The notes under the pieces: model-generated | The model's database searches: none | Told to the model about the DNA's origin: nothing | Seen by the model: the letters and a program-made list of their open reading frames with translations, nothing else | Assembly (NCBI GenBank): GCA_026705445.1 | Contig: JAPPAR010000011.1 | Location: 145,776 to 209,775 of the forward strand | DNA: 64,000 bases | Source: Candidatus Dadabacteria bacterium | GTDB lineage: Bacteria > Desulfobacterota_D > UBA1144 > Nemesobacterales > Nemesobacteraceae | Direction: 5' to 3' | Shown here: positions 9,485 through 53,173 of the stretch, piece by piece | Position numbering within the stretch: position 1 is the stretch's first letter | Layout: every line of letters starts with the position of its first letter | Program-made: the position numbers and the translations under genes

Positions 9485-9486
9485 AG

Positions 9487-10089
9487 ATGAAAATATACGG
9501 GCTTACAGGAAATATAGGTTCGGGCAAATCGACTGTGGCGGGAATGTTGCGCGAGTTCGGGGCGTTCACAGTGGATGCCGACGAGGTGGCGAGGGAAATC
9601 GTGCGGCCCGGGGAGCCTGCGCTTTCGGAAATCGTTGACTGTTTCGGCCGGGAGGTTCTCTGCGCGGACGGGACGCTTGACCGCGCGGCTCTTGCCGAAA
9701 TAGTGTTTGTAGACGAGGGGGAACGAAAGCGGCTCAACGACATAACCCATCCAAGGATTCTTGAGCGGATAAAGGAGAAGATATACGCCCGAGACGGCGA
9801 ACCGATCGTGTTTGTCGAGGCGTCGCTTATAGACCGCGGAAGCGGCGGTCTTGATGAATTAATCGACGGTCTTGTGGTGGTTACGTGTCCCGAGGAATTG
9901 AGGGAGCGCAGGGTGGCTTCCCGTGACGGCATGTCGCCTGAGGAAATACGCAGCCGCGTGGCCTCCCAGATGCCAGAAGAGGAAAAGGCCGCTCAGGCCG
10001 ATTTTCTCATAAAAAACTCCTCCGACACGCAGAGTCTGCGCGTCCGGGTCCATGCTCTGTTCGAGGCTCTCTGCGCCGCGGAACCTTGA
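9487..10089 (+). CDS. coaE: dephospho-CoA kinase
   Basis: The P-loop is GLTGNIGSGKST. The protein is ~200 aa, and DITHP is typical of CoaE. Confidence 0.9.
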   Translation: MKIYGLTGNIGSGKSTVAGMLREFGAFTVDADEVAREIVRPGEPALSEIVDCFGREVLCADGTLDRAALAEIVFVDEGERKRLNDITHPRILERIKEKIYARDGEPIVFVEASLIDRGSGGLDELIDGLVVVTCPEELRERRVASRDGMSPEEIRSRVASQMPEEEKAAQADFLIKNSSDTQSLRVRVHALFEALCAAEP

Positions 10090-21114: not shown

Positions 21115-21269
21115 TACTAGCTCCTCCAAGTGCTGGCAGACAGCTTTCCCCGAAAGAGCGGTTAAATGAATGAGTACATAGGGCGGAAAACGAAAACTGC
21201 GCGAACGCGCCGGAAAGAAAAAATATGTTTTTAATCGCCATACGCCTAACTCCCGAGGCAAAGCCACTA

Positions 21270-21475
21270 TAGATTGACGCAGGCAGGTCTTCCGACTTAA
21301 AGGGCTGCCTGTTATTGAAACAGAGCGACTTTTCCGGATACGGTCTTCCCGGCTGTGTTGAAGCCAGTGACCCGAAACGCAAGCACGCTTCGCATGGGCA
21401 CCGAAAAAACCCCTTATTACGGCTGCGGGAACAGTTCGGGACTCTCACCCGATTCCCTTAACCTGAATCTAAATA
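21270..21475 (-). promoter_or_regulatory. cobalamin (B12) riboswitch in the 5' leader of the TonB-dependent receptor
   Basis: The minus-strand RNA reads ...GGUUAAGGGAAUCGGGUGAGAGUCCCGAACUGUUCCCGCAGCCGUAA...GGUCACUGGC...AAGUCGGAAGACCUGCC. These are the conserved GGGAA/GGUG..UCC/CCCGC..GUAA core and the B12 box (AGYCMGGAAGRCCUGCC). Confidence 0.8.
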
Positions 21476-21533
21476 TAACTATACAACTTAGTAGTGGGGG
21501 TGTCAAAAGCCCCAAGTCAGCGGGAAGGCGTAA

Positions 21534-36798: not shown

Positions 36799-38019
36799 AT
36801 GCTTATAGAGCAGCTTGAAAGAAATATCGCTAGCAAACGCGGGGAGATTTCCCGCTGGATAGAGTTCCATTGCGAAAAGGTCATGGTACCGCTTTACAGT
36901 TCCGTTGACCTGCGTTTCTCCGAGCATAAGATTGCCCCTATAGACACCAATGTTTTTCCCGCAGGCTTTAACAACCTTTCTGCGGGATTCAGGAAAAATG
37001 CGGGAAAGCTCTTCAGGGAATATCTTTTTTCCAGGTACCCGAGTGCCGAAAAAATCCTTTTGGTTCCCGAGCTCAATACCAAAAACGCCTATTACTGGGA
37101 AAATGTCTGGGTAATAAAGTCCGTTTTGGAGGATGTGGGCTACGAGGTGTGCGTCGGCATTGCGAACGAGGAATTTCGAAGGGAAACTGTCTCGTTCAGT
37201 TCGGCAAGCGGTCAGGTAATCGAGGCGAAGCGGGTTTTTCAGGAAGAGGGCTCGGCGATGATAGATGGATTCGTGCCCGATATCATAATGATAAACAACG
37301 ATTTTTCGGAGAAGTGTCCGAAAACCCTGCACAATTTGCGCCAGCCCGTCTTACCGCCCGTTGAAATAGGGTGGCATGCGAGAAAAAAGGACGTGCATTT
37401 TGAGTTCTATAACCGTCTCTGCAGCGAACTTGCCGACATACTGGAAGTGGACCCCTGGGTGATGTCGGTTGAAACTGTTTTGGAAACCGGAGTGGATTTT
37501 GATTTCCCCGAGGACAGGGAGCGGGTTTCCCAGAAAGCCGGAGAAATTCTCTCAAGGGTTAGAGAAGAATATTCGAAAAGAGACATAGACCACGAACCCT
37601 CGCTTTTCGTCAAGAGCAATTCAGGCACCTACGGCATGGCAGTTTCGAGCTTCAGCGACCCGCGGAGCATAGCGGAGATGAACTCGCGCGACCGCAAGAG
37701 GATGCGGGTTTCGAAGGGAGGAGTGCCGGTTAGGGACGTGGTAATACAGGAGTGTGTACCGACCTCGCTTCGCGTCGGGGAAGATTTTGTCGGTGAACCG
37801 GTTGTTTACCTTGTTCAGTCCCAAGTGGCAGGGATGTTCTACAGGGTTAACCCCATTCGAGGCGAACTTGAAAATCTTAACTCAAAGGGGATGGAATTTC
37901 TTCCGTACGATGACTCCTTAGCAAACGGCATCTCTCCGGCATTTGATCTTGTCTGCAAGGTTGCTACTATCGCCGCGGGCTACGAGATAGAAAAAGTGCT
38001 TAGGGACGTGGATTGCTGA
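36799..38019 (+). CDS. putative glutamate-cysteine ligase-like / ATP-grasp-like enzyme
   Basis: The LYSSVDLRFSEHKIAPIDTNVFPAGFNNL and FVKSNSGTYGMAV motifs resemble the GshA-type family from memory. I cannot verify this without a search. Confidence 0.4.
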   Translation: MLIEQLERNIASKRGEISRWIEFHCEKVMVPLYSSVDLRFSEHKIAPIDTNVFPAGFNNLSAGFRKNAGKLFREYLFSRYPSAEKILLVPELNTKNAYYWENVWVIKSVLEDVGYEVCVGIANEEFRRETVSFSSASGQVIEAKRVFQEEGSAMIDGFVPDIIMINNDFSEKCPKTLHNLRQPVLPPVEIGWHARKKDVHFEFYNRLCSELADILEVDPWVMSVETVLETGVDFDFPEDRERVSQKAGEILSRVREEYSKRDIDHEPSLFVKSNSGTYGMAVSSFSDPRSIAEMNSRDRKRMRVSKGGVPVRDVVIQECVPTSLRVGEDFVGEPVVYLVQSQVAGMFYRVNPIRGELENLNSKGMEFLPYDDSLANGISPAFDLVCKVATIAAGYEIEKVLRDVDC

Positions 38020-38049
38020 GATGTGCGGTTATGCTTTAAGCGGGGAAGG

Positions 38050-38433
38050 TTAAAGTGCTGGGTCCAATATATGTTGTTTTAAAGAAACATCAACAGAATT
38101 TTTATCCTTCTTCGATAAACATCCTAGTCGTCTGATAATCATCGATTTTTCTAACGTAAAGAGTTTTAAGCGCACTACCGACGGCACTGCTAAATTGGCG
38201 TCGGCGGGGTCTTTGAGTTTGATATCGCTTTGCCAAGAACTACGCTTGGCGGTTGTGACCATCGCTAAAATCAATTGATCGTGGTTTTCATTGAACTCTT
38301 CGGATGATATAACCAAAGCGGGCCTGCGCTTTTTAACAGAAGAATCGGTAAAGGGGAAAGAAACAACTACAATATCATGGGGTTTAAAGGTTACGCCATG
38401 CATCTTCATCCTCATCTGATAGCCATTCCTCAA
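38050..38433 (-). CDS. MazF/PemK-family toxin (mRNA interferase)
   Basis: The pattern DIVVVSFPFTDSSVKKRRPALVIS matches PemK/MazF. The true start is probably one of the internal Met (M7/M9/M11), and it overlaps the upstream antitoxin. Confidence 0.7.
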   Translation of the reverse strand: MRNGYQMRMKMHGVTFKPHDIVVVSFPFTDSSVKKRRPALVISSEEFNENHDQLILAMVTTAKRSSWQSDIKLKDPADANLAVPSVVRLKLFTLEKSMIIRRLGCLSKKDKNSVDVSLKQHILDPAL

Positions 38434-38608
38434 GGTTTGAAGAAATGCTATCCAAATAAGTGTCTTTAGTGGGCTTGAGCTTGGTTACAATAACACGGTC
38501 TCCGTCTAACTCGAAAACAAGCTTGTCACCTGTTTTAAAGTGTGCGGCCTTACGCAATCCATGAGGAATAGTGACTTGGCCTTTCGAAGTGATTTTGGAA
38601 ATTTCCAC
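38384..38608 (-). CDS. AbrB/MazE/SpoVT-family antitoxin
   Basis: The start is GTG behind GGAGG. The ISKITSKGQVTIPHGLRKAAHFKTGDKLVFELDGDRVIV stretch is a swapped-hairpin (SpoVT/AbrB) domain. The acidic C-terminus is typical of antitoxins. Confidence 0.7.
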   Translation of the reverse strand: MEISKITSKGQVTIPHGLRKAAHFKTGDKLVFELDGDRVIVTKLKPTKDTYLDSISSNLEEWLSDEDEDAWRNL

Positions 38609-38720
38609 AACAACGTACCTCCTTACATGTAAGGATAACAAGGAAGCGAAAATATGCAAGGACATCGAAAACAGTACGACACTACTGAAATGGTAGCAGC
38701 AGTCTCGCCTCCAAGGCTGG

Positions 38721-40127
38721 TTACGCTATATCTCTCAGTTGGATTGAGTCTATGCCGGCGGTAGTTATAACGTCCGATACCAGCACTACAAGATCACCCT
38801 GTTCCAGCACCTGCTTTTCTTTCAGCAGCCCGAAAGCATCCTGTATTCTCTGTTCGGGATCTTCGGATTTCTCCATGAGATGCGCGGTTACGGACCTGTT
38901 CAAACAGAGCTGCCGTTTTATTCCGCTGTCGAAAGTTACCGCATGAATAGGTGTTTTGGCAGGCCTGCAGTTTGTTGTCAATTGAGCCATCAGTCCTTTC
39001 TTCGTTATTACAACAAGACATTTGGCGTTGACAGATTCGGCGAGTTCAACCGCCGAAGCCGCTATATGCTGCTTGAGATCTTGTTTAACAAGGAGCCTGC
39101 CCATCTGCAGACTCCTGAGGCTTTCCGCCTTTAAGGCTATCTTGTCGAGATGTTCTATTGATTTTACGGGATGTTTTCCGGTTGTCGTCTCGCCCGAGAG
39201 CATAAGGGCGTCGACTTCCTCATAGACCGCGTTTGAAACGTCAGTTACTTCCGCCCGGGTAGGAATCGGGTTGTCGATCATCGATTCAAGAAGATGGGTG
39301 GCGACTATTACTCTTTTGCCTTTCTCCTGGCATTTGCCGACTATCACTCTTTGCACATCCGGCAGTTCCTCAATGCTTATCTCGATGCCGAGATCTCCTC
39401 TCGCAACCATAACAGCGTCCGATGCCTCAACGATTTCCTCAACGTTTCGCACCCCTTCCTGATCCTCAATCTTTGAGATGATTTTTATTTTCTCCCCATC
39501 AACTCCCAGCAGTTCCCTGAGTTTAAAAACGTCCTGTGCTTCCCTGACGAAGGAAAGGGCTATGTAATCCACTCCGTTTCTTGCTCCGAACTCTATGTCC
39601 GCCTTGTCCTTGTCCGTTATTGAAGGGAGATTGACTTTTACCCCGGGCAGATTGACATGGCGCTTGCTTTTCATGGTTCCGCCGTCGATAACTCTGCATT
39701 TCATGGTTCCGTGGTCCTTCTTGAGCACTTCAAGGTTTATGAGACCGTTGTCCACGGTTATTTTCTCGCCTACCTGCACTTCGTTGATAATGTCCTCGTA
39801 ATTTATATGAATCGAGGACTCTTCGACGTCATCGGGTCTTACGGAAACCGTAATCACGTCTCCCTCGCTTATATGCAGGTCGCTTTGCAGAACCCCGGTT
39901 CTGATTTCCGGTCCCTGAGTGTCGAGTATAAGGGCGATTGAATCCCCAACTTCCCTGTTGATCGATTTCACCGTTTCGATTACTCCAAGGTGGCTTTCGT
40001 GAGTGCCGTGCGACATGTTGAGGCGCACGGCGTTCATTCCCGCCTCGTACATTTTCATCAACATTTCGTACGAACTTGTGGAGGGGCCGGCGGTGCAGAT
40101 TATTTTCGTTTTTCTAAATGGTTTCAT
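38721..40127 (-). CDS. pyk: pyruvate kinase
   Basis: The pattern is KTKIICTAGPST...RLNMSHG...DTQGPEIR. Confidence 0.95.
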   Translation of the reverse strand: MKPFRKTKIICTAGPSTSSYEMLMKMYEAGMNAVRLNMSHGTHESHLGVIETVKSINREVGDSIALILDTQGPEIRTGVLQSDLHISEGDVITVSVRPDDVEESSIHINYEDIINEVQVGEKITVDNGLINLEVLKKDHGTMKCRVIDGGTMKSKRHVNLPGVKVNLPSITDKDKADIEFGARNGVDYIALSFVREAQDVFKLRELLGVDGEKIKIISKIEDQEGVRNVEEIVEASDAVMVARGDLGIEISIEELPDVQRVIVGKCQEKGKRVIVATHLLESMIDNPIPTRAEVTDVSNAVYEEVDALMLSGETTTGKHPVKSIEHLDKIALKAESLRSLQMGRLLVKQDLKQHIAASAVELAESVNAKCLVVITKKGLMAQLTTNCRPAKTPIHAVTFDSGIKRQLCLNRSVTAHLMEKSEDPEQRIQDAFGLLKEKQVLEQGDLVVLVSDVITTAGIDSIQLRDIA

Positions 40128-40337
40128 AGGCGGGGAAATATGTCGGGAAATTTAAAAAATGCAAAATCTTGTTAATCAAAAACTAATAATATGGAGACAG
40201 GACAAAGCGATTCCATTTAAATTCTAGAAATTATACTTTGAATTTGCAAGACTAGTTCGGTGATATTAAATCAAAAGGAAGTTTGCGCTAAGTGGTTATG
40301 AAACAAAAGAGCTTCGTGGTTGTAAAATGCCGAAAGC

Positions 40338-41090
40338 CTAAGTTCGCAAAGGCTGATGAGCACAAACTTTTTTCCTTGAGTTTTTCTTTTTCAGTATTTG
40401 TTGTATCTGTTTTGCGAGTTCTTCCGGCACCTTTTCTTCTTTTCCGAGTGAAAGAAGCAACCTGAAAAAATCATTCTTTAGGGTGTCTTTTGAGTGATGT
40501 CTATGAAGTTGCAACAAAACTTCACTGTGACATTCTCGAACCTTCAATCTGCTTTTGCAAGGGCAGGGAAGATGGCCACGGTAGCCATACTCGAAAAGAA
40601 AAGCGAGCATTGTTAATATGTTGACATGACTACCTAAGCCCAGATCATCTCTGTAATACTCAATAATTCCCTCAACACCATGTGCACGCTCGCCAAAAGG
40701 GTGCTGGCCGTACTTTTTCCAATAGCAGTAACCGTATAAATATGGAATAACTAGATGATTTACGAACCCGAGTAAGGACTCTTGTTCTAGGAAAAACAAG
40801 CGTTTCTCAATTGGGGTAGCCAGACAGAGGGTCCCATCTTGATTCAGGTGTTCATAGTTTTGGTCGATTTTTCCACCTATTTCTCTTACAACCGGAAGAA
40901 CTTCTGGGTAAGCACTGGGAATAGCAAGTTCGATGTCAAAGCAGTCTGTAATCACTGGGAACCCATCGAAGGACGCTTCAAACGAAAGAGGACCTTTTAT
41001 AACTGTTTTCCGGTTCTGAAGAGATATATCTGTAAGGCCTCTATGAGTTTTTTTTAATTCGCAAATTTGGCTTCCGACCTTATTCTTCAT
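40338..41090 (-). CDS. E2 (UBC-fold)-like protein, Cap2-short-type CBASS accessory, with a Cys/His-rich C-terminal extension
   Basis: The UBC-like pattern is ...GPLSFEASFDGFPVITDCFDIELAIPSAYPEVLP...YEHLNQDGTLCLATP (compare HPN...G.ICL). The extra ~90 aa carry CPCKSRLKVRECH...HRHH. The low-GC context is shared with the two upstream genes. Confidence 0.55.
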   Translation of the reverse strand: MKNKVGSQICELKKTHRGLTDISLQNRKTVIKGPLSFEASFDGFPVITDCFDIELAIPSAYPEVLPVVREIGGKIDQNYEHLNQDGTLCLATPIEKRLFFLEQESLLGFVNHLVIPYLYGYCYWKKYGQHPFGERAHGVEGIIEYYRDDLGLGSHVNILTMLAFLFEYGYRGHLPCPCKSRLKVRECHSEVLLQLHRHHSKDTLKNDFFRLLLSLGKEEKVPEELAKQIQQILKKKNSRKKVCAHQPLRT

Positions 41091-41094
41091 TCAT

Positions 41095-42294
41095 TTAGTT
41101 TCTCCATGGCTTTCGTGGTCTGGAAATATGAATCTTCGGTGGGCTTTCGATTTCTCTAGGTGGTACTATCTGTTCCAAATTTCCCAGCACGGGTACACTG
41201 CCTAAAGCAGAAGTAAGAGTTCTTTGGACTTCATTTCGGTTATCTTTACCCAATATATCAACCAGATCTTCTTGTAGACACCTTAACCACATGAAGAAAG
41301 CCTCCGCTCTAGCATGATTATCTTCGTGCCACCTGTCTGCAAAGTTTTCCTCTGGATTAACCGGATTGCCTATATACCACTTCCCATCGGGAGTCCTCTT
41401 TATGGGGCTAATTGACTCTAGGGTTGGTTCAAGTGCTCGACCCTCAAACAGCGCTACGTGTGCACTTAAACTGGCCACGATGTTCTTCAGAGCGGAGTAA
41501 ACATCTGATTCATTTCGATAAAAATATGCGGAGAGGGTTGTAATAATTATTGAGATTGGAGCATAGTCAACACGCTCTGCATTATTGAACTTAATATCAC
41601 GGTGACGCTTCATAATTTGAATCGTGCGTTGAAGAGGGGTACGTACCAACTGATCTGGTACATCTTCAATTTTTGCATATATCTCGGGCACTCGATTTTG
41701 AATAAATTTCTTCTGCTCAGCATATACGAGGTCGAACGCAGGCTTGTTCCGGCCATCAAACCATAGACCATACCCTTTAGGGTCGCTTATTGACCATCTA
41801 TAGAGGGAAAGAAATTTATTTGTTATTGCAATTGCTGTATTCAGATAGCCTTTTGGATAAGGGACTGATGGCAGAACATCTAAGTGAAAACCTACATTGT
41901 CTTCCTCAGAGTATATTAGAGTCCAGCACCTCTTGCCTTCCTCATCTAGCATTCTCTTATACCTGTCATGTTCTTTTAGCCTGTCACCGACTAACTGCTT
42001 TACGTACTCAGGCTTGGCCCACTCTTTTAGCAAGGGGATTTCGCACACAAGATCAATGTCATAATCTGCTTCAATACCGTTCCTTATTGGTCTTGTGACT
42101 GTGCCTAACCGAAATGAACCTTGTGGATAGATGTCTAACCCAGAATCACAAGATCCGGGGTAATCTCCGCCTTCCAGCCATTTTGCAACAGCTTGGTAGC
42201 GCTCGACAGCATCTTTGTACTTGACCGGGGAAATATCTAGGTCCCCTGCAACTTCGTTTAAAAAGTTAGAATATCTAGCTTCATCAATTCTCAT
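41095..42294 (-). CDS. cGAS/DncV-like nucleotidyltransferase (CD-NTase)
   Basis: The Pol-beta-type NTase motif is GSFRLGTVTRPIRNGIEADYDIDLV (GS...[DE]x[DE]). At ~400 aa the length is typical, and it is sandwiched between a patatin and an E2-like gene. Confidence 0.75.
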   Translation of the reverse strand: MRIDEARYSNFLNEVAGDLDISPVKYKDAVERYQAVAKWLEGGDYPGSCDSGLDIYPQGSFRLGTVTRPIRNGIEADYDIDLVCEIPLLKEWAKPEYVKQLVGDRLKEHDRYKRMLDEEGKRCWTLIYSEEDNVGFHLDVLPSVPYPKGYLNTAIAITNKFLSLYRWSISDPKGYGLWFDGRNKPAFDLVYAEQKKFIQNRVPEIYAKIEDVPDQLVRTPLQRTIQIMKRHRDIKFNNAERVDYAPISIIITTLSAYFYRNESDVYSALKNIVASLSAHVALFEGRALEPTLESISPIKRTPDGKWYIGNPVNPEENFADRWHEDNHARAEAFFMWLRCLQEDLVDILGKDNRNEVQRTLTSALGSVPVLGNLEQIVPPREIESPPKIHISRPRKPWRN

Positions 42295-42296
42295 TC

Positions 42297-43304
42297 TTAA
42301 TCCTCCAACTTATAATATGGTTTGAAAGCTTCTACTGGTTTGTCGAAAAATATAGCTTCGAGGCTGGGTTGCCAGCTTCGCCCCTCGGAGTGGCCGAGTC
42401 CTTTTAAGTCTTGTATGGTCTTTGTGTCGTCCATTTTATAGGTGTTATATGGAACCGTCTGATTTACTCTGTATATAGCGGTACGTTCATGTTCATGACC
42501 CGTTAACAGTTTTGCGATACCCATAGCCCCCTGGGACTGTCCGTCCATGAATAGGTTAATAATTCTTGAGTTAAGCGTTCCGAGACCAGCGCGTTTTGGT
42601 ATATTGTACGCCTCCTGCAGACACCCTAGACTTAAGACGCGAAGCGACTCTCTTGGCCAGTTCAGCAGGGAGATGGCCTCAACAACAGCAATCGCTACAG
42701 GATTGTTTGCCCATATACCGCCGTCAATGAGGGCGACACCATGCTGTGTAACGTGTTGCTTGAAATAGGAAGGAGCTGCTGATGTCGCCATAGCTACATC
42801 AACTGCGCTTGATTTGTAATCTGTTTTTAGCCGAGGATGATGTGCTGTTTTATAGATATAGACGGAATTAGCAACCGGATTCCAAGCTGGAATAAGTAAC
42901 CGGGTTTTTGCTTCACCGATGCGTTTTTCCCCAAGCACATCATGAAGAACAGCTCGGAGAGGTTCAGAATTATACTTTCTTAGAAAACACCATTTAACTG
43001 CTCGGATTTTCCTGAGGAGAAAATTCAGAAACGGTCCATTATTTTTACCAAATACCTCATAACTTCTGTTTTCGTAAAAATTCAATAGTTGCGATGCTGA
43101 AACTCCCATGCTGAGACCAAGCGCAATGATTCCTCCTGTGGAACTTCCCGCAATTAGGTCGAAATACTTTCCAATAGGGTGATCAAGGTGTTTTTCCAGT
43201 TCAGCAAGAAATGCCGCAGGAAAAGTACCGAGGACTCCCCCTCCGTCAATACATAGGATTCGTTTTTTTGCTATTCCGGTATTTTCTTTCTTAACCCTGT
43301 TCAA
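42297..43304 (-). CDS. patatin-like phospholipase (CapV-like CBASS effector)
   Basis: The oxyanion motif is DGGGVLG, the nucleophile elbow is GSSTGG (GxSxG), and the catalytic Asp lies in ...IDGG... Confidence 0.85.
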   Translation of the reverse strand: MNRVKKENTGIAKKRILCIDGGGVLGTFPAAFLAELEKHLDHPIGKYFDLIAGSSTGGIIALGLSMGVSASQLLNFYENRSYEVFGKNNGPFLNFLLRKIRAVKWCFLRKYNSEPLRAVLHDVLGEKRIGEAKTRLLIPAWNPVANSVYIYKTAHHPRLKTDYKSSAVDVAMATSAAPSYFKQHVTQHGVALIDGGIWANNPVAIAVVEAISLLNWPRESLRVLSLGCLQEAYNIPKRAGLGTLNSRIINLFMDGQSQGAMGIAKLLTGHEHERTAIYRVNQTVPYNTYKMDDTKTIQDLKGLGHSEGRSWQPSLEAIFFDKPVEAFKPYYKLED

Positions 43305-43526
43305 TTTTTCTTCTTGCGATCTTTGTTATTAGGTGCAACAGTAAAAAATACTTGAAAAAGGTCCCTGTTTCTTTTATAATGTTGACTGTTACAAGCTACA
43401 TATTTTATTCTAAGGAAGTTATTTTTTTATTTTGTTTTAGCAAGCTAGCGCAGCATGTTGCCTAGTACAGACAACAGAATAATTGATCTTTTTTGCTTGT
43501 CAAGAATTTTCTCAAAATAATATAGA

Positions 43527-43910
43527 ATGTCTTTTGGTTATGCTTTGAAAAAGTTTCGTGAAGGGCGTGGTTTAACCCTTCGAGAGCTTGGGAAACTGTG
43601 TGGAATAGACCATACCTATATCCATCGATTGGAAAAAGAAGAAAGGACTTCCCCATCGGAAGAAACTGTCGACTCTCTCATTAATACACTCAAGCTCCGT
43701 GGACGCAAGGCTCGCCTGTTGCGTTTTCTTGTTGGACAGACAGTCAGTGACCAGCTTGTTGAAGTCTTTCTAGAGGATGAAGAACGCCCCATAGAAATTT
43801 TTGAGTCTTTGGCCTTCATGAGCTTCAGAGGAAAACAACCTAAAACTAAAGAAGAATGGCGCAAGTGGGCTGAACGGCTGGAAGAGTTTATGAAGAATGA
43901 GCAAAGATAA
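43527..43910 (+). CDS. XRE-family HTH transcriptional regulator (CapH-like)
   Basis: The helix-turn-helix is LTLRELGKLCGIDHTYIHRLE. It is divergent from the CBASS operon and overlaps the downstream peptidase gene. Confidence 0.7.
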   Translation: MSFGYALKKFREGRGLTLRELGKLCGIDHTYIHRLEKEERTSPSEETVDSLINTLKLRGRKARLLRFLVGQTVSDQLVEVFLEDEERPIEIFESLAFMSFRGKQPKTKEEWRKWAERLEEFMKNEQR

Positions 43911-44802
43911 AGCAAAAGAGCTTGAAATTGTTTTAAAGGCTCGCGATTTCATTAGAGAATCTGGAATAAATTCCGTGCCTGTTGATCTTAAGCGTTACTG
44001 TGCGGTTGCTAAGGCTAAAATTAAGGTTCGCTATGATCTCGATGATGAAGAATCAGGCCAGACTTTTCCCTTGAACAGTAAAAATATTATCACTGTTAAC
44101 GGTAATCATACGGAAGAAAGGCAACGATTTACAGTTCTGCACGAGATTGGTCATATTATTCTGGAACTACCCTCAAGGCATCAAAATGGTTGTATAAAAA
44201 CAACTGATTTGATCAGTTACAGGCAACGCCCAGAAGAAGAGGTCCTATGCGATATTTTTGCGGCGGAATGCCTCTTGCCGTATGATTTTTTCGAGAAGGA
44301 TATTGAAGATGTTGACATATGTCTCGATACGATAAAGAACCTGTCAAAACGTTACAAAGCTTCTATACACTCTACAGGTTCCAGGTTTGCTGCTAATTGT
44401 GAAGGGCTTTGTTCTTTTGTTCTTATTGAAGAAGGTAAAATTCGCTATGTATCCAGTTCAAAATCTCTGCGTGAACTTAAGGGCTGGATTGACATCGGTG
44501 TGCCAGTTCCTCAAAACAGCGCAGCTTTTCAACTGATCAAAAATCGATCTGAGACTGAGCATTACGATGATGAAATTCCTACTGAGATTTGGTTCAACAA
44601 TGGTATCGGAAATTACGATATGTTGTGTGAGGAAGCAATCTTTATAAAAGAATGGAATCAATGTCTTTCCATTCTTTGGTTTGATGAAAACTTGAGACCT
44701 GCAGGTGAAATCGAACCTTACGATGTTGATTATGGGGAATCGTCATTACCCAGAGAATTTGATGGAGTATTGACGTGGCCATCAAGAAGTCGGAGGAGAT
44801 AA
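43897..44802 (+). CDS. ImmA/IrrE-family zinc metallopeptidase (CapP-like)
   Basis: The HEIGH motif (VLHEIGHIILE) is followed by a downstream Glu/Cys-rich region. It is paired with the XRE HTH. Confidence 0.75.
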   Translation: MSKDKAKELEIVLKARDFIRESGINSVPVDLKRYCAVAKAKIKVRYDLDDEESGQTFPLNSKNIITVNGNHTEERQRFTVLHEIGHIILELPSRHQNGCIKTTDLISYRQRPEEEVLCDIFAAECLLPYDFFEKDIEDVDICLDTIKNLSKRYKASIHSTGSRFAANCEGLCSFVLIEEGKIRYVSSSKSLRELKGWIDIGVPVPQNSAAFQLIKNRSETEHYDDEIPTEIWFNNGIGNYDMLCEEAIFIKEWNQCLSILWFDENLRPAGEIEPYDVDYGESSLPREFDGVLTWPSRSRRR

Positions 44803-44868
44803 GCAGAGTTAAAAACTAGCTGTTTTACTTATTACGCCTAACAACTAAAGACATACTAAAAAAGAAAA

Positions 44869-45942
44869 ATGTATACAGACTATACTGTTTCAGAAACAGA
44901 CTCCCAAAATTGTCCTGATAACGGAAGACACTTCTGTAGATATTTTCAACTCCAAAACAGACGGTATTTAGGAAACAAATACAAGTTACTTGGATTTATT
45001 GAGAATGTAATTTCTCAAAAGTGCGAGTCGGTAGCCTCTTTGTGTGATATTTTTGCCGGTACCGGTGCAGTTTCTGAAAGATTCAATAGTTTGGAAGTTA
45101 AAATTATTTCCAATGATCTTCTTTTTGCTAACTATGTTTGCTTGAATGCGTTTTTAGGAATTGCCGGCTACCAGTTAGCAAATATTTTTGAAAAAATAGA
45201 ATATCTTAATAGTCTGCCGAGCGATGAAGAAAACTATTTTTCGAAACACTTTGGTGGAACGTATTTCTCAGACGAGAACGCAAGGAAAATTGGAGCGGTA
45301 CGCGAGGAAATAGAAAAAATCGCGGAAAATGAGGAGGAAAGAAACGTCCTGATTTGTTCGTTGCTTTATGCGGCGGATAAGGTTGCCAATACAGTGGGTC
45401 ACTACGACGCTTTCCGTAAGAAGTTGGACATGCTACAGCCGGTAACTCTTCTGATTCCTTCTATTGACTATTCACGTAATTTGAACAACGAGATTTACAA
45501 GGAGGATGCAAACGTGCTGATTGAAAAGATTTCTTGCGATGTCTTGTATGTCGATCCACCATATAATTCACGTCAATACTCTGACGCATATCATCTTTTG
45601 GAAAATCTTGCGGAATGGAAGAAGCCCGAGGTTATTGGTGTAGGCAAGAAAATGGACCGTTCTCATATAAAGAGTGCCTATTGTCTCAAGGATGCAGCGA
45701 CCGCGTTTGCAGACTTGGTCGAAAAGGCGAACTGTAACCATATTCTGCTTTCTTATAACAATACTGGTGATTCAAAGGATGGGCGCTCAAATGCAAGAAT
45801 GAGTGATGATGAGATTCTCCAAATTCTGGATGATAAAGGAGAAATTGAAGTTTTTGAAAAGGATTACAAACCCTTTACAACGGGAAAGAGTAATGGAGAG
45901 AGCAACGCGGAACGAATTTTCTATTGCAGAGTAACGAAATAA
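44869..45942 (+). CDS. D12-class (Dam-like) N6-adenine DNA methyltransferase
   Basis: The N-terminus RYLGNKYKLL, the AdoMet motif DIFAGTGAVS and the catalytic DPPY (YVDPPYNS) are present. Confidence 0.8.
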   Translation: MYTDYTVSETDSQNCPDNGRHFCRYFQLQNRRYLGNKYKLLGFIENVISQKCESVASLCDIFAGTGAVSERFNSLEVKIISNDLLFANYVCLNAFLGIAGYQLANIFEKIEYLNSLPSDEENYFSKHFGGTYFSDENARKIGAVREEIEKIAENEEERNVLICSLLYAADKVANTVGHYDAFRKKLDMLQPVTLLIPSIDYSRNLNNEIYKEDANVLIEKISCDVLYVDPPYNSRQYSDAYHLLENLAEWKKPEVIGVGKKMDRSHIKSAYCLKDAATAFADLVEKANCNHILLSYNNTGDSKDGRSNARMSDDEILQILDDKGEIEVFEKDYKPFTTGKSNGESNAERIFYCRVTK

Positions 45943-47759
45943 TGACGAAAAAACCTTGGTCGGTTACAACAACGGTACGAAACCCCGACAGATTAAGAGG
46001 CTTTTTGGCCGTTTTGCAAGAGCTTGAAGGCTCGGATTGGAACCATGAGAATCAGAAAAAGTATCAAATTCTTCTGATTCAATCTAGGCTATACGGTTAC
46101 GGAAAACAGCAGTTTTACAACGGACTTACGGACGAACAAATTGAATTAATTGATAACCCGTCAACGGAGATTTCTTTTGAACAAGCAGAGGAGATTTTCG
46201 ATGAGAAAAATTACGAAGATCCTCCAATGCGTGGAAGACAATCATTAAACCCTTTGAAAAAGTTCGGATTTGCTGTAATCAAAAATAGAAAAATATTTAT
46301 TACGGACTTGGGAAGGTTGTTTTTACAGGATGATTTTAAAGATAATCTTGGAGAAATTTTTCTTAAAAGTTTCCTAAAGTGGCAATTACCGAATCCTGAT
46401 AGTCAAGACTATCCAAAGGACACATATTACGATGTCAAGCCCTTTGTTGCCACGCTTCATTTAATTAACAAAGTAAATCAAAAAGAAATCGATTGTGACA
46501 ACAAACCAAAAGGGCTCAGCAAACAGGAATTCTCTCTTTTTGTTCCAACACTACTGCACTACAAAGATATAGCTTTCTATGCCCAAAGAATCGTTGACTT
46601 GAGACGAGAAGGAACAACAAGAAGTGGGGTTGTTTCAGAAAGCTACAAAAAACAGTTTGCAGAGAAATTCCTGGAAACTGATAACCCCGAGGAAGTAGAT
46701 AAGCTCCTAAAAAACCTGAAGGACTATGGGGATAATACCATTCGTTATTTTCGGTTAATTCCATATGTTTACATTCATGGTGGTGACTTCTATGTTGACT
46801 TGGAGCCGAGAAGAAAAATTGAAATCGAATCACTGCTCAATCATAACAACGCGCAGACAAAAAGCTTTGAGTCAAAAGAAGAATATTTTGCATATATATC
46901 TGATATTTCTAGACCACAGCTTCCTTGGGAGACTTTTGAGAAACGTATTGAGATTATTAAAGAGCTTATTGAGAAAGTACATCAATGCGAAAGAGTTTTG
47001 CAGAAGGAAAATATAGAGATCAGGAACTACTTGAAGATGCAAAATGATGAGTTGGGAGATTACATAACGGAATTAAGGAATTACAGACGATCATTGCTGG
47101 AAGAGAAAAATCGCAAAAAATCTCAATCAGTTGAACAAATTAAGTCTTGTATTAAAAACCTGAAAAATATTCATCATTCTGAAGGCGATCGCCCGATACT
47201 ACTTGAGAAACTGGCTACACTCGGTTTACATGCACTTGATGACGCAAGGGAAATAAAACCCAATTAACCAGTCGGGGATGACAATGAACCGACTTTTACG
47301 GCCCCGGGAGATGTTCCAGACATTGAATGTTTTTATAAAAGCTTCAATGCAATTTGCGAAGTTACGATGTTAACCGGTCGGAATCAATGGTACTACGAAG
47401 GGCAGCCGGTGATGAGGCATTTCAGGGATTTTGAAGATGAGCACAAAGACAAACTATCTTACTGCGTGTTTATTGCCCCAAAGTTGCATAGAGATACCAT
47501 CAATACTTTTTGGAATGCGGTAAAGTATGGATACGAAGGGCAACGGCAAAAAATAATTCCACTTTCAATTAGTAACTTTGTTTCTATTTTAAAATCCTTG
47601 CTTGATATGAAAACGAAACAAAAATCTTTGAGGCATGAAAATCTTTCTTCGCTGTATGACCAGATATTGTCCTCTACTAATTCTTTTAGTGATTCAAATG
47701 AATGGTTGGGAAGTATCAGAGCTACTATTTCCTCGTGGCAGAAAGACATCGCTTCGTAA
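45924..47759 (+). pseudogene. large Type IIS-like restriction endonuclease gene (possibly AlwI/BstNBI family) interrupted by one in-frame TAA at 47265-47267
   Basis: The track ORFs 45924..47267 and 47367..47759 are in the same frame. Translating across the gap gives ...REIKPN*PVGDDNEPTFTAPGDVPDIECFYKSFNAICEVTMLTGRNQWYYEG..., a PD-x(n)-E-x-(K/T)-like nuclease core downstream of the stop. It is flanked by two methyltransferases. Confidence 0.5.
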
Positions 47760-47773
47760 ATGCGAGGGCAGAT

Positions 47774-48544
47774 ATGAGAACGGGGATTATATACAATGGT
47801 GATTGCGTCAAAGTGATGAGAGAGAAAATCGATGAAAAATCCATCGATTTAATTTTCGCTGACCCTCCTTACAATCTTTCTGGAAGTGGCTTAAAATGGG
47901 AAGGAAACAAAACCGGCGGCAACTGGTACATGATCAATGAAAATTGGGACAAAATGACAGCTCCTGAGTATATGCAATTTACGAGACAGTGGATCAGTTC
48001 TTGTCATAGGGTTTTGAAGGATAACGGGTCAATTTACATTGCATGCAGTTATCACAATATAAGCGAGGTGATGATTGTATTAAAACAACTTGATTTCAAA
48101 ATCAATAACGTTATTACTTGGCGCAAGACAAACGCGATGCCGAATATGACAAAAAGAGTTTTCACGCACTCAACGGAGTTTATAGTTTGGGCGGTAAAAG
48201 GAAGAGGTTGGACATTCAATTATGAAGAAATAAAGGAAATAAATCCCGAAAAACAAAAGGACGGAAGCCCCAAACAGATGCGCGACTTTTGGGAATTGCC
48301 GCTTGTACAAGGGCGAGAAAGATTGCGGGGTGAAGATAACCGTGCTTTGCACCCTACACAAAAACCGGAAGAAATGCTTAAAAGAATCATATTAGCAAGT
48401 TCTAATGAAGGCGAAGTAGTTCTTGACCCTTTTCTTGGGAGTGGGACAACGACTTATGTGGCAAGAAAATACGGTCGTAAGTGGATTGGAATTGAGCAGA
48501 ATAGTGAGTATGTAGGAATTGCTAAGAAAAGAATGAAAAAGTAA
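47774..48544 (+). CDS. beta-class N6/N4 DNA methyltransferase
   Basis: The catalytic motif is DPPYN. HPTQKP...DPFLGSGTT is the AdoMet motif in the order typical of beta-class enzymes. Confidence 0.85.
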   Translation: MRTGIIYNGDCVKVMREKIDEKSIDLIFADPPYNLSGSGLKWEGNKTGGNWYMINENWDKMTAPEYMQFTRQWISSCHRVLKDNGSIYIACSYHNISEVMIVLKQLDFKINNVITWRKTNAMPNMTKRVFTHSTEFIVWAVKGRGWTFNYEEIKEINPEKQKDGSPKQMRDFWELPLVQGRERLRGEDNRALHPTQKPEEMLKRIILASSNEGEVVLDPFLGSGTTTYVARKYGRKWIGIEQNSEYVGIAKKRMKK

Positions 48545-48739
48545 TTGAAAGCACGAACTAAATTACTCGTAATTCCTTGCCGATTTGCTCAATTGTATAA
48601 TTTCGATTTTTTGTTTCTGATTTGATAAACTCCCATAATTTTCTAATCAACCATAAGCTTTTTTGACAGCACTCCCGTTTTGTGATAGTAAACTGCTTTT
48701 TAATCTAACAAGAACCCCCAAGTTCCCCAAGACGAGACA

Positions 48740-50017
48740 ATGGAATACGTACAGCATTTATCAGTAGAAAAATTCATTCTTTATCTTCTGATAATCCTTG
48801 TTTTCGCCAAGGCCTTCGGCCGGCTGGCAGAAAAAATCGGGCAGCCCTCGGTTCTCGGGGAGCTTCTGGCCGGAGTTGTTCTCAGCGCAAGCGTTCTGGC
48901 GCTTGTTCCGTCCACCGAAGGGATGGTCGGATACGACATATTTCACCTGCTTGCGGAAATAGGGGTCGTTCTTCTTCTTTTCGAAATAGGCCTTGAAACC
49001 AGACTTGCTGACCTCATAAAAGTGGGGCCGGTCTCGGCGCTCGTAGCGGTAGTCGGGGTGGTTCTGCCTTTTGCGCTGGGGTATTTCTGCGTAATTTATT
49101 TCCAGAAGTTCGCGATACTCAATCTTGAAGCCAACATGGTCGGGCTTGTGGCCATAGTAATGGGTGCAACGCTCACCGCCACGAGCGTCGGAATCACGGC
49201 CAGGGTTCTGGCTGACCTTGACAGGCTCCAGACAAAAGAGGCCAGAATAGTTCTTACCGCCGCCATAATCGACGACGTCATCGGGCTTATTATTCTCGGG
49301 GTCGTAAGCGGCATAGCGAGTTCTTTTCAATCGGGAGGCGGAACAGAGCAGTTGACCCTCTCTTCGATCTCATTTATAACAGCTAAGGCCTTCGGTTTTC
49401 TCGCCGTTTCCATAGTTGTCGGCAGGATTGTCGCTCCCAGGATTTTCGGGTTTTTCGCCCGGATCGACAGAAGCAATCTCGTCTGGATCATGGCGATAGC
49501 CTTCTGCTTTGTCTATGCGTACTGTTCAAATCTTTTTTCTCTCGCTCCCATAGTGGGGGCGTTCGCGGCCGGTCTGGTTCTTCGCGAAACGGAGCAGTTC
49601 AAGACTATTGAGGCGAGCATAAAGCCCGTTTCTCACTTTTTCGCCCCGATATTTTTCGTGATGGTAGGGGCGGCCGTGGATGTTTCTGTATTTAACCCCT
49701 TTGTATCTGAAAATATTATGGTAATATCAATCGCTTTAATTCTTTTCGCGGTGGCGGTTATAGGTAAGTACGCGAGCGGTTACGTAGTCTATGAAAAAGG
49801 CGTAAGAAAAAGCATAATTGGCATCGGAATGATCCCGCGAGGCGAGGTCGGGCTTATTTTCGCGAAGATCGGTCTTGCGTACGGCGTTTTCAAAACCGAT
49901 CTTTTCTCCGCCGTCACTGCTATGGTCATACTGACAACATTTATAGTGCCCCCGCTTTTAAAATGGATGTTTGAAAGGGAGGACAAGGAGCGCAAGCTGG
50001 CCGAAAGTGCGGTCTAG
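48740..50017 (+). CDS. monovalent cation:proton antiporter (Na+/H+ exchanger family)
   Basis: At 425 aa it is a multi-TM protein. LGELLAGVVL...GLE and the overall pattern fit CPA-type exchangers. Confidence 0.8.
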   Translation: MEYVQHLSVEKFILYLLIILVFAKAFGRLAEKIGQPSVLGELLAGVVLSASVLALVPSTEGMVGYDIFHLLAEIGVVLLLFEIGLETRLADLIKVGPVSALVAVVGVVLPFALGYFCVIYFQKFAILNLEANMVGLVAIVMGATLTATSVGITARVLADLDRLQTKEARIVLTAAIIDDVIGLIILGVVSGIASSFQSGGGTEQLTLSSISFITAKAFGFLAVSIVVGRIVAPRIFGFFARIDRSNLVWIMAIAFCFVYAYCSNLFSLAPIVGAFAAGLVLRETEQFKTIEASIKPVSHFFAPIFFVMVGAAVDVSVFNPFVSENIMVISIALILFAVAVIGKYASGYVVYEKGVRKSIIGIGMIPRGEVGLIFAKIGLAYGVFKTDLFSAVTAMVILTTFIVPPLLKWMFEREDKERKLAESAV

Positions 50018-50043
50018 CGAATAACCTTGAAGCTAGGTTAATC

Positions 50044-50553
50044 ATGAGATTCTACGGTCTTAGGACATTTCTGCATGCTGCGATTTTTGCCTTGGCGCTC
50101 ACTCCCTCGGCAAATGCCGCCGAGAACATGCTGAGCGTCGATAAGACGCTTGTGGTTCAGCTTGTTATTTTCCTGGTAGGACTTTTTCTGCTGAACCGCC
50201 TCGTGTTCCGCCCGCTTATCGGGGTCTGGGACAGGAGGGAGGAACTAACCGCGGGCACGATCAGAAAAGCCGAGGAAATGACCCGCAAGGCCGAGGGTGC
50301 CATCGCCGAGTACAACGAGAAAATTGCCGAGGCTAGGGCCCAGGCCACCGAGACAAGAAACGAACTCCGCCAGCAGGGACAGGGCGAATCTTCAAGGATG
50401 CTTCTTTCGGCGAGAGAAGCCGCCCAGGCGGACCTTGAGGGCGCGAGAGGGACTCTTGAGAGTGAGGTCACAAAGATAAGGGCGGACCTTGAGAGCGAGG
50501 TAGAGTCGCTTGCGGCGGAGATAAGTGACCGTGTCCTGAGGAAGGGGGTGTAG
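50044..50553 (+). CDS. F0F1 ATP synthase subunit b'
   Basis: It is a b-type subunit with a signal/anchor helix followed by a long Ala/Glu/Arg-rich helix. It is the first gene of the atp cluster. Confidence 0.65.
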   Translation: MRFYGLRTFLHAAIFALALTPSANAAENMLSVDKTLVVQLVIFLVGLFLLNRLVFRPLIGVWDRREELTAGTIRKAEEMTRKAEGAIAEYNEKIAEARAQATETRNELRQQGQGESSRMLLSAREAAQADLEGARGTLESEVTKIRADLESEVESLAAEISDRVLRKGV

Positions 50554-50598
50554 TGCTGATGGCTGCTGCGGATTTTAATTTTCCGGGGGAAACCGAGA

Positions 50599-51108
50599 TT
50601 GGATAGTCATTTCAACTGGGCGTTTGTAATAAAATACGCTGTTAATCTGGGTCTTCTTCTGGCCCTTCTCATATACCTTATCAGAAAACCTTTCCTGTCT
50701 TTTCTCAAAAACAGGAAGGAAAGGCTCCGCTCGGAGGTTGACCGCGCCGCGGCGGCGGCCGAGCAGGCAAAAATGACGCTTGAGCAATACTCGGCGAAAC
50801 TTGACGCGGTAGCCTCGGAAATAGCTTCTCTTCAGGAAAACATAAGAAAACAGGGTGAGAATGAAAGGGACGAGCTTGTCTCCGCGGCGGAGAAAAGCTG
50901 CGAGATGATAAAAAAAGAGGTTGAGGACACGATTCGTCTTGAGACCACCAAGGCGGTCTCAGAGATACAGTCCGAAGTGGTCTCTTCGGCGCTTGCGCTT
51001 GCCGAGGAGATGATAAAGGAACGGGTGGACGCGGATTTTACGACCGATTCGGTCGACGATTTCGTAAAAATGATTGAGGAAGGAAAATGGCAACAGTTGC
51101 GACACTGA
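50599..51108 (+). CDS. atpF: F0F1 ATP synthase subunit b
   Basis: It is a b-type subunit with an N-terminal TM helix and a long charged helix. Confidence 0.7.
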   Translation: MDSHFNWAFVIKYAVNLGLLLALLIYLIRKPFLSFLKNRKERLRSEVDRAAAAAEQAKMTLEQYSAKLDAVASEIASLQENIRKQGENERDELVSAAEKSCEMIKKEVEDTIRLETTKAVSEIQSEVVSSALALAEEMIKERVDADFTTDSVDDFVKMIEEGKWQQLRH

Positions 51109-51629
51109 GAGATCTCGTCTCGGCGCTTGTGGATTCCGCGGCAGATGAAAGTGAACTTTCGGGGGTAAGATCCGATATGGAGAGTTTCTTTGAGCGGGTT
51201 GCCGATTCGGGCGAGCTTCGGGATGTTCTTTTAAGCGCGGTGTTTTCGATGGAGGAGAAAAAGTCGGTCCTTGGGGATTTTCTCGAGGCGGCGTCTTCTC
51301 TTGAAATTACGAGAAGATTTCTTCTGCTGGTTGTGGAGATGGAGAAGGTCGCGGCGCTTCTTGGCTCAAGGGAAGCCGTGCTCGCGAGACTTGACGAAGC
51401 GGTTGGAAAAATAACGGCTGAAATTACCTCGGCCAGAGATCTTAGCCAAAACGACGTCGAGAGGCTCAGCGCGGCGCTTCGTGCGGCGACCGGAAAAACG
51501 GTTGAGGTGTCGCTTAAGGTTGATCCTTCCATGATAGGCGGAATAAAAGCCCAGGTGGGTGACAAGGTTTACGATAACAGCGTCAGGACGCAGCTTGAGA
51601 GAATAAGAGGCGTTCTTTCTCCGTCCTGA
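51087..51629 (+). CDS. atpH: F0F1 ATP synthase subunit delta (OSCP)
   Basis: It has OSCP family length and pattern and sits between b and alpha. Confidence 0.8.
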
Positions 51630-51655
51630 CCCGAATAATTCCAAAGGAGCTAGTA

Positions 51656-53173
51656 ATGCAGGAACTAAGAGCAGAGAGTATAGGCGAGATTCTGAGAAAC
51701 AGGATAAAGGGCTATGAACGGAAAGTTGATACCGAAGAAGTCGGGACGGTTATTTCCGTCGGCGACGGTATCGCTAGGGTTTACGGTCTTGATCAGGCGG
51801 TAGCGGGAGAGCTCGTCGAGTTTGACGGCGGAATCACCGGACTTGTTCTTAACCTTGAAGAGGATAATGTCGGTGTCGCTCTTTTCGGAGAGGATTCCCA
51901 CCTGAGCGAAGGAGGAATGGTAAAGCGAACGGGACGCATCGCCGAGGTGCCTGTCGGAGACGCTCTCGGCGGAAGGGTGGTCGATGCTCTCGGAAGACCG
52001 ATTGACGGTCTCGGAGAAATAGCCGCCGCTGAAACAAGGCAGATCGAGGTGAAGGCCCCCGGAGTTATTTACCGCCAGTCGGTAAACGAGCCCCTTCAGA
52101 CGGGACTTAAGGCCGTTGATTCCATGATACCGATAGGAAGAGGCCAGAGAGAACTTATTCTGGGAGACCGTCAGGTCGGAAAGACCGCTATCGCGATCGA
52201 TACGATAATAAACCAAAAAGAAGAGAATGTTCACTGCATATACGTTGCCGTAGGACAGAAACAGTCAACCGTGGCCCAGGTAGTCGATAAGCTCAAGGAG
52301 CACGACGCCATGAAGTACACGACAATAGTTTCCGCCACGGCCAGCACCCCGGCTCCTTTTCAGTTCCTTGCTCCTTTTTCCGGCTGTGCCATGGGGGAAT
52401 ATTTCAGAGACACCGGCCGACACGCGCTCATAATATACGATGATCTGACGAAACACGCGTGGTCCTACCGCCAGCTTTCTCTTCTTCTAAAGAGACCGCC
52501 GGGACGCGAGGCTTACCCTGGAGATGTTTTCTATCTTCACTCAAGGCTCCTTGAGCGCGCCGCCAAAATGAGAGACGAGGACGGAGGCGGCTCCCTTACG
52601 GCGCTTCCTATAATCGAAACCCAGGCTGGTGACGTGTCCGCCTACATTCCCACGAACGTGATTTCCATCACCGACGGGCAGATATACCTTGAGAGCGATC
52701 TTTTCTACTCGGGTGTGCGACCCGCCATTAACGTCGGTCTTTCGGTTTCAAGGGTGGGAGGGAGCGCTCAGATAAAGGCGATGAAAAACATCGCCGGAAC
52801 ACTGAGGCTTGAGCTTGCCCAGTACAGGGAAGTCGAGGCGTTTGCGCAGTTCGCTTCCGACCTTGACAGGGTAACACAGAACCAGCTTGCCCGCGGAAGC
52901 AGGCTTGTCGAGGCCCTCAAACAGGATCAGTACGAACCACAGGCGGTTGAAAAGCAGATCCTGATCATATTTGCAGTTACAAACGGCTATGTTGACGACT
53001 ATCCGGTATCCGCAGTGAGAAAATACGAGAGGGAGCTTTCTTCTTTCATGGAATCGAAGTATCCTCAGTATCTTGCGGAGATAAAAGAGAAGAAAGTTGT
53101 TTCGGACGAACTTGAGGAAAAGCTCGCAGCAGCGCTTGACGAGCTTAAAAACCAGTTGGGCGAGCTTGCCTGA
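51656..53173 (+). CDS. atpA: F0F1 ATP synthase subunit alpha
   Basis: The P-loop is GDRQVGKT. Typical alpha-subunit signatures are present. Confidence 0.95.

Follow-up and report, generated by a model that had tools for sequence, protein, structure and literature searches.

The 64,000-nucleotide stretch of Candidatus Dadabacteria DNA analyzed here (hereafter the window) carries an ~8.4-kb AT-rich block of anti-phage genes between pyk, which encodes pyruvate kinase, and the gene for a CPA2-family cation/proton antiporter. Our comparisons indicate that this interval is probably a composite, two-module anti-phage island, held at a site that varies widely among Dadabacteria and brought into the window lineage on a recombination tract. 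One module places an anti-phage signaling system based on cyclic oligonucleotides (CBASS) divergently from a capH–capP regulatory pair, and the other would be a type IIS-like, AlwI-family restriction-modification (R-M) system with one methyltransferase (MTase) per strand. The island does not represent a single insertion event: the site is variable across Dadabacteria, and the modules recur in other lineages at ~87% DNA identity.

About 30 Candidatus Dadabacteria species share the gshA-pyk ... antiporter-atpFF′HA synteny (individual genomes are cited below by our own handles). The pyk–antiporter spacer is empty and spans only 103–346 bp in 11 of these species (L007–L009, L013, L015, L016, L022–L025, and L034). 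In 12 other species it measures from 0.66 to >9 kb and is filled with unrelated cargo, among which no homologs of the window island genes were found. This alternative cargo includes ParD/ParE beside pyk, a tyrosine integrase, a DUF6338 protein (L006), insertion sequence (IS) transposases (L019, L021, and L035), an M78 protein with a SocA antitoxin (L010), and a type IIG enzyme with an HKD-SNF2 helicase (L004 and L014). Remnants persist in some “empty” sites as well, namely the 3′ end of the integrase gene in L013 and L016 and parE in L023 and L024.

Parts of the window island recur at this same site in three other lineages, and the restriction endonucleases of these copies are intact at 605–606 aa. 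The R-M module stands alone in L108–L111. L106 and L107 combine R-M with capH–capP and a Bil operon (BilABCD, ubiquitin-like), and L105 holds an integrase, an M78 gene, CBASS, capH–capP, and R-M. The modules that recur at the site are R-M, CapHP + R-M, and CBASS + CapHP + R-M. Among the window, L105, L106, and L108, DNA identity is 86.7–89.1% for R-M and 86.4–89.8% for the core, and the guanine-plus-cytosine (GC) content of all R-M copies is ~0.39. In L106 the homologous stretch extends through the first six codons of patatin (ATGAACGAAGTTAAAAAATAA), which survive as a relic upstream of bilA. Bil has thus taken the place of CBASS immediately downstream of the regulated promoter, after effector codon 6.

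Comparison with the closest relative of the window, L025, suggests how the island reached this lineage. The site in L025 is empty (239-bp spacer), and the two genomes are 97–100% identical over 30.2–37.2 and 51.5–53.7 kb but only 80–93% identical within 37.45–40.13 and 48.74–51.45 kb. Over these near flanks, the window takes an outgroup position (87–90%) relative to L025, L015, L018, L022, L008, and L009, which are mostly 90–95% identical to one another (88–95% overall). From the outgroup position relative to all six close relatives, set against ~98% identity to L025 in the distal flanks, we infer the direction of the event, with the window as the recombinant. It is fairly likely that a ~14-kb tract was imported by homologous recombination from a Dadabacteria donor that is ~10% divergent. 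This tract contains the island together with ~2.7 kb of core DNA on the left (the 3′ end of gshA, mazEF, and pyk) and ~2.7 kb on the right (antiporter, atpF, atpF′, and atpH), and crossovers would have occurred in gshA (about 37.3–37.5 kb) and at atpH/atpA (about 51.3–51.5 kb). A second pair of genomes, L106 (filled, 9.64 kb) and L026 (empty, 145 bp), is 99.7–99.8% identical in the flanks, while identity drops to 95.4% over the adjacent 391 bp of pyk. Furthermore, a core tree built from antiporter-atpA places the R-M-bearing genomes in three separate clades, each with empty or otherwise-loaded sisters.

Several points weigh against import on such a tract. No donor more than 93% identical to the near flanks was found, so the tract is reconstructed from one side. 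Identity between L025 and L015 also falls near the site, from 96–98% to 93–95%, and part of the contrast that defines the tract could reflect locally raised diversity near a hotspot. An older, integrase-mediated origin is a minority alternative, as L105 pairs a tyrosine integrase with a closely related island. Separately, at ~53.7 kb, a second recombination boundary is visible where identity to L025 falls from ~98% to 89–95% while L015 stays at 95–98% to ~56.9 kb; the flanking DNA is a mosaic drawn from several relatives.

The interval also differs from the rest of the window in composition. Its GC content is 0.398, compared to 0.506 in the adjacent core genes and 0.499 in the whole window. 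Windows of 1 kb average 0.401 within 40128–48740 (maximum 0.451) and 0.516 ± 0.032 elsewhere (z = −3.6), and 500-bp windows give 0.36–0.46 in the interval versus about 0.49–0.56 in the flanks. GC at third codon positions (GC3) is 0.33–0.42 for seven island open reading frames (ORFs) and 0.47–0.67 for the 41 other long ORFs of the window, two disjoint ranges obtained from ORFs of at least 150 aa (capH, at 127 aa, is left out). Tetranucleotide distance along the window peaks at 40–48 kb. A preliminary description of this DNA had put the block at 38–42% GC and its flanks at ~55%; the former figure and the contrast itself hold, while the flanks lie at about 50–52%. The compositional comparisons it proposed (run here on GC, GC3, and tetranucleotide distance) single out the interval and, along with the 11 empty sites that its suggested search of relatives has now revealed and the lack of flanking direct repeats, they bear out its view of a horizontally acquired, low-GC defense island between pyk and the antiporter gene.

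That description had also reported no integrase, transposase, tRNA, or convincing flanking repeats, and our tblastn, repeat, and RNA searches agree. The island contains no integrase or transposase gene, and tblastn detected no remnants of an L105-type integrase or M78 gene in the window. No tRNA or other RNA target lies near the island; there is no tRNA within 30 kb, and the nearest ones are at window position 7.9 kb. The search for direct and inverted repeats at the junctions returned just short, chance-level matches (70–94% identity), none of which bracket the boundaries. The hallmarks of an integrative element (integrase, att direct repeats, and tRNA) are therefore absent from the window block. 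In E. coli genomes, plasmids, and phages, nothing similar at the DNA level to either the island or the flanking sequence was found. The insertion mechanism had been described as not visible. This stands insofar as no mobility gene or repeat is present, but homologous recombination through the flanking core genes (37.45–51.45 kb) now appears the most likely route.

Insertion by a tyrosine recombinase at a specific site in the pyk–antiporter spacer, followed by deletion of the integrase and att sites in the window lineage, is suggested by L105. There, a Phage_integrase gene (322 aa) and an M78 gene separate pyk from a CBASS + CapHP + R-M island that is 87% identical to that of the window. An 86%-identical integrase occupies the same site in L004; L010, L019, and L020 have related copies or fragments, and 3′ ends persist in L013 and L016, all of which is consistent with such an origin. 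The window, however, retains no integrase remnant and no flanking repeats above chance, and which side of the site carries the integrase varies from genome to genome. Moreover, integration would leave no ~10% divergence in the flanking pyk and antiporter-atpH genes relative to an otherwise 98%-identical relative. We consider this origin unlikely. Long vertical inheritance of an ancestral island, with independent losses in the empty-site relatives, fits the similar identities of R-M and core among the window, L105, L106, and L108, and also the R-M/antiporter junction, which is collinear between the window and L108 (a single blastn high-scoring segment pair over 44940–53000). It conflicts with the scatter of R-M-bearing genomes over three core-tree clades that each include empty sisters, and with the outgroup position of near flanks whose distal counterparts are 98% identical to L025. 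The persistent GC content of 0.39–0.42 is likewise hard to fit to long vertical residence, though it is seen in all copies. An ancestral island is improbable on these grounds.

Since the window comes from a metagenome-assembled genome (MAG) and the compositional shift is abrupt, the block might be an assembly or binning chimera in which foreign DNA was joined to a Dadabacteria contig. This explanation is effectively refuted and retains almost no probability. Three further metagenome assemblies, obtained from different samples (L001–L003, 99.985–100% identity), have the same sequence and junctions, which demonstrates that the block is real, and syntenic relatives of the island occupy the site in complete-chromosome MAGs (L106, 1.85 Mb). 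Recombination of a filled allele through the core flanks is the reading we retain.

Several features of the neighboring DNA were noted during these comparisons. The pyk–gshA interval is variable too, measuring ~50 bp in L011, L023, and L034 and up to ~9 kb in L006, so that pyk is bracketed by two hotspots. In the window, this second site holds a MazE/PemK (MazF-like) toxin-antitoxin pair (38050–38665, minus strand; GC 0.42–0.47). The empty-site genome L026 has a 1.78-kb insertion (8223–10000) that interrupts pyk after codon 109 and carries a 479-aa ORF with no Pfam match. The type IIG-like enzyme of L004 (958–9332) and L014 (1750–8489) is a 1105-aa protein (PADLOC REase_MTase_IIG, score 1130) encoded at the same site as the tyrosine integrase. 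It is accompanied by a 1073-aa HKD(PLD)-SNF2 helicase (PADLOC ‘HKD+Snf2’; DrmD-like), and the pair has a GC content of 0.378.

Alignment to empty sites sets the limits of the island at ~40196 and ~48590–48630. On the left, MAFFT alignment identifies 40128 to ~40195 as a conserved pyk leader common to all relatives; ~40196–40304 is found only in this strain, and the sequence from 40305 onward is homologous to the L105 island. On the right, empty-site homology returns at ~48590–48630, and the island leaves intact a conserved antiporter/atp promoter (TTGACA at 48663–48668). The antiporter gene is followed by atpF, atpF′, atpH, and atpA, all of which belong to ATP synthase families.

Table 1 Features of the pyk–antiporter interval and its flanks, in window coordinates.
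Feature	Position	Strand	Assignment or basis
Approximate recombinant tract	37450..51450	.	Identity to L025; six-relative comparison
pyk (pyruvate kinase), left core flank	38721..40127	-	Pfam PK + PK_C, TIGR01064
Left junction	40128..40337	.	MAFFT alignment of pyk-proximal regions; blastn
E2-only Cap2-like protein, 250 aa	40338..41090	-	PADLOC E2 PDLC00871; weak Pfam Prok-E2_B
CD-NTase, clade-G-like	41095..42294	-	PADLOC cyclase 3e-111; Pfam DncV-like_NTFase PF21654
Patatin-like phospholipase effector, CapV-like	42297..43304	-	Pfam Patatin 6.6e-29; PADLOC phospholipase effector 2e-99
Shared regulatory region, 222 bp	43305..43526	.	Promoter scan, repeats, seven-copy alignment
capH, XRE-type helix-turn-helix repressor	43527..43910	+	Pfam HTH_31 + HTH_3; PADLOC capH 1.2e-13
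capP, M78/IrrE-type metallopeptidase	43897..44802	+	Pfam Peptidase_M78 1.2e-14; PADLOC capP 1e-49, full model
D12-class N6-adenine DNA MTase	44869..45942	+	Pfam MethyltransfD12 4.4e-34; PADLOC MTase_II 2.8e-114
AlwI-family restriction/nicking endonuclease pseudogene	45942..47759	+	Pfam RE_AlwI split over two ORFs
N6_N4-class DNA MTase	47702..48544	+	Pfam N6_N4_Mtase 1.3e-63; PADLOC MTase_II 2.5e-87
Right junction	48545..48739	.	MAFFT alignment of antiporter-proximal regions
CPA2-family cation/proton antiporter, right core flank	48740..50017	+	NCBIfam TIGR00932

Judged by their sequences, the patatin, CD-NTase (cGAS/DncV-like nucleotidyltransferase), and stand-alone E2 genes form an E2-only (type II short) CBASS. 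The operon runs divergently from capH/capP, ends at pyk, and lacks both an E1 domain and a JAB gene. The E2 protein matches its PADLOC model over the full length (4.3e-77; model positions 4–240 of 241) and has a probable catalytic cysteine in a GTLCL motif, with no sequence match in the PDB. The CD-NTase retains intact nucleotidyltransferase motifs (GSFRLGT, DYDID within DYDIDL, and HLDVLP) and aligns to the solved CdnG-type enzymes 9woo (3e-42) and SmCdnG (8hsb, 5e-28). The patatin gene has a TTG start, and its DGGG, GSSTG, and DGG motifs are intact. The cyclases of E2-CBASS mostly belong to clade G (PMC12948482). In the window system, the clade-G-like CD-NTase would make a cyclic nucleotide that activates the patatin phospholipase and thereby kills the infected cell, and the E2 protein would regulate the cyclase covalently. 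The C-terminus of the CD-NTase (...ALGSVPVLGNLEQIVPPREIESPPKIHISRPRKPWRN, ending in PWRN) has internal glycine residues but no terminal one, which complicates the placement of an E2 cleavage or ligation site.

The 222-bp region between the patatin and capH genes appears to control both directions of transcription. A promoter scan identified a rightward promoter-like site (TTGAAA-17-TATAAT, 43352–43380) and a leftward one (TTGACA-16-TATTCT, 43503–43476). An imperfect palindrome (TGTTGCC-N-GGCAACA) lies at 43456–43476, with a related box at 43379–43400, and we propose that both are CapH operators that overlap the −10 or start regions. As single-stranded DNA, the palindrome has a hairpin stability that does not differ from that of shuffled sequences, a result that is irrelevant to a double-stranded operator. 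The capH–cargo intergenic region is conserved in an alignment of seven CBASS- and Bil-linked copies. CapH/CapP accompany CBASS of types I–III and phospholipase effectors (bioRxiv 10.1101/2022.04.27.489752), and 15% of Bil operons are associated with CapH/CapP (PMC10557695). By analogy with the work of Lau et al. (2022), CapH would repress the CBASS operon, and CapP, which carries a HEIGH (HExxH) motif, would cleave CapH after DNA damage or in response to single-stranded DNA to relieve this repression. The two promoter-like sites (43352–43503), the best in the region, face each other, with the rightward one upstream of the leftward one, and this arrangement is kept in seven of the seven copies; the 5′ leaders would overlap by ~100 nt as antisense transcripts.

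The CBASS cassette also occurs elsewhere. L100–L104 denote other genomes, for which cassette similarity and GC would be the sole basis for a place in Dadabacteria, and no such membership is claimed. The five-gene capH-capP/patatin-CDN-E2 arrangement is present in L100, L102, and L104, with CD-NTase identities of 77–93%. It lies between isocitrate lyase and mgtE in L100, inside a larger island in L102, and on a short contig in L104. The GC content of the cassette is 0.41–0.42 in all three, versus 0.49–0.54 in the flanking DNA of L100 and L102, whereas cassette versions at ~60% identity have the same GC content as their hosts. The best matches to the window are mosaic, as patatin is closest to L100, the cyclase to L104, and capH–capP to L102. 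In L102 (4768–11990), capH–capP lies between patatin-CDN-E2 and a 508-aa CD-NTase with a SAVED-2TM effector on the capP strand. The presence of this second CBASS after capP means that the slot downstream of capP takes different defense cargo from genome to genome. The larger L102 island also includes Dcm/Vsr and HNH/HATPase genes. In L104 (248–1441), whose CD-NTase is the most similar to that of the window (93%), capH and capP are fused into one gene for a 397-aa protein; fusions of this kind have been reported by Lau et al. (bioRxiv 10.1101/2022.04.27.489752).

The second module places an endonuclease gene between two MTase genes. Both MTases are full length relative to the PADLOC models and have intact motifs (DPPY and FAGTG in the D12 enzyme, DPPY and FLGSG in the N6_N4 enzyme). 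The endonuclease, on the other hand, is split into two ORFs that share one frame and are parted by a single in-frame TAA at 47265–47267. This codon cuts the product short at residue 441, ahead of the PD...EVT catalytic motif. The joined sequence aligns to N.BspD6I across the stop, through the linker and catalytic domain. Database homologs are uninterrupted, ~605 aa long, and up to 85% identical, while the window’s own database entry has 441 aa. Four syntenic relatives encode tyrosine (TAT) at this position, and an independent assembly two single-nucleotide polymorphisms away (L001) has the same TAA. As there is no in-frame start before 47367 in the endonuclease frame, the catalytic residues are not made without read-through. 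The endonuclease gene is a pseudogene created by a single TAT-to-TAA (Tyr-to-stop) nonsense codon. Pfam and PADLOC otherwise confirm the defense gene list of the preliminary description, which had listed an endonuclease and missed this stop.

The cognate MTases are thus present without an intact endonuclease ORF of ~605 aa, and the R-M module has been reduced to two orphan MTases that are probably active. We also looked for the recognition site through k-mer avoidance. In 55 kb of host DNA, GGATC is mildly depleted (z = −2.2, rank 16 of 512), GAGTC is not, and GATC occurs 430 times against 524 expected. Over this length the signal is too weak for a specificity to be assigned.

It is also conceivable, though quite improbable in our view, that the capH-capP-M-R-M block is a functional unit rather than a chance adjacency. 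In such a unit, the AlwI-family enzyme would break or nick unmethylated phage DNA, producing single-stranded DNA or a damage signal that makes CapP active, and active CapP would in turn lift the repression of the abortive-infection cargo, CBASS or Bil, that happens to sit behind the CapH-controlled promoter. This would amount to a hard-wired two-tier circuit, with restriction first, suicide second, and an exchangeable second-tier cargo; loss of the endonuclease would have uncoupled it in the window lineage. The capHP–R-M linkage argues only weakly for this arrangement, since it is restricted to this site and may simply reflect history.

Elsewhere in the window, a 1756-aa ORF (2508–7778, plus strand) whose product has He_PIG Ig-like and Calx-beta domains is the other compositional outlier (tetranucleotide distance 0.41, GC 0.567). 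Next to it, on the minus strand, are the genes for tRNA-Glu and another tRNA (7874–7951 and 7961–8028). A cobalamin riboswitch (Rfam RF00174, 73 bits) is located at 21265–21481 on the minus strand, upstream of a 696-aa ORF (19177–21267).

E2-CBASS, CapH/CapP, and AlwI-type R-M have all been described already, and the gene content alone is routine. What is new is the host phylum, the reloaded core-flanked hotspot, the precise swap of CBASS and Bil behind a single CapH-controlled promoter, and a probable recombination tract. The comparative value of the locus lies in what it reveals about the movement of defense genes in a phylum that is uncultured and has small genomes (1.5–2.4 Mb in the complete-chromosome MAGs). 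Here, a single core-flanked site is reloaded repeatedly, modules are exchanged precisely at a regulated promoter, and whole alleles, whether filled or empty, appear to be transferred through homologous recombination with no mobility gene involved. The R-M system is caught just after the loss of its endonuclease, and the two orphan MTases could still shape the methylome.

Hotspots and flexible islands that carry defense genes and are exchanged by flanking homologous recombination are known from marine Vibrio, Prochlorococcus, and E. coli. The pyk–antiporter site resembles them in its fixed, core-flanked position, in defense cargo that differs between strains, in presence and absence among near-identical genomes, in its many variants without mobility genes, and in its divergent recombinant flanks. 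It differs from them in its host, Candidatus Dadabacteria, and in the mixture of integrase-bearing, IS-bearing, and mobility-gene-free cargo at one site.

The CBASS module is likewise organized as in the Serratia marcescens SmCdnG-SmE2 system (E2-CBASS, PMC12948482), with an effector, a CD-NTase, and a stand-alone E2 but no E1 or JAB. The window cyclase resembles clade-G CdnG, and the window E2 is full length on the PADLOC CBASS-E2 models. Unlike that system, the window operon resides in an uncultured Dadabacteria host, its proteins show ~30% identity or less to the studied proteins, its E2 has no sequence-level PDB match, and a C-terminal glycine for E2 ligation is not evident in its CD-NTase. 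The R-M module shares with the AlwI, N.BstNBI, and BspD6I type IIS systems a ~605-aa endonuclease of Pfam RE_AlwI architecture and two separate adenine MTases, as an asymmetric site would need, but differs from them in the premature stop before the catalytic domain of its endonuclease. Finally, the window capH–capP genes match those described by Lau et al. (2022) in pairing an XRE helix-turn-helix protein with an M78 metallopeptidase (HEIGH), divergent from the immune operon and with a common promoter region. In contrast to the pairs described there, they are followed after a 66-bp gap by an R-M system on the same strand, and at a single chromosomal site one capHP-plus-promoter block is combined with CBASS cargo in some genomes and Bil cargo in others.

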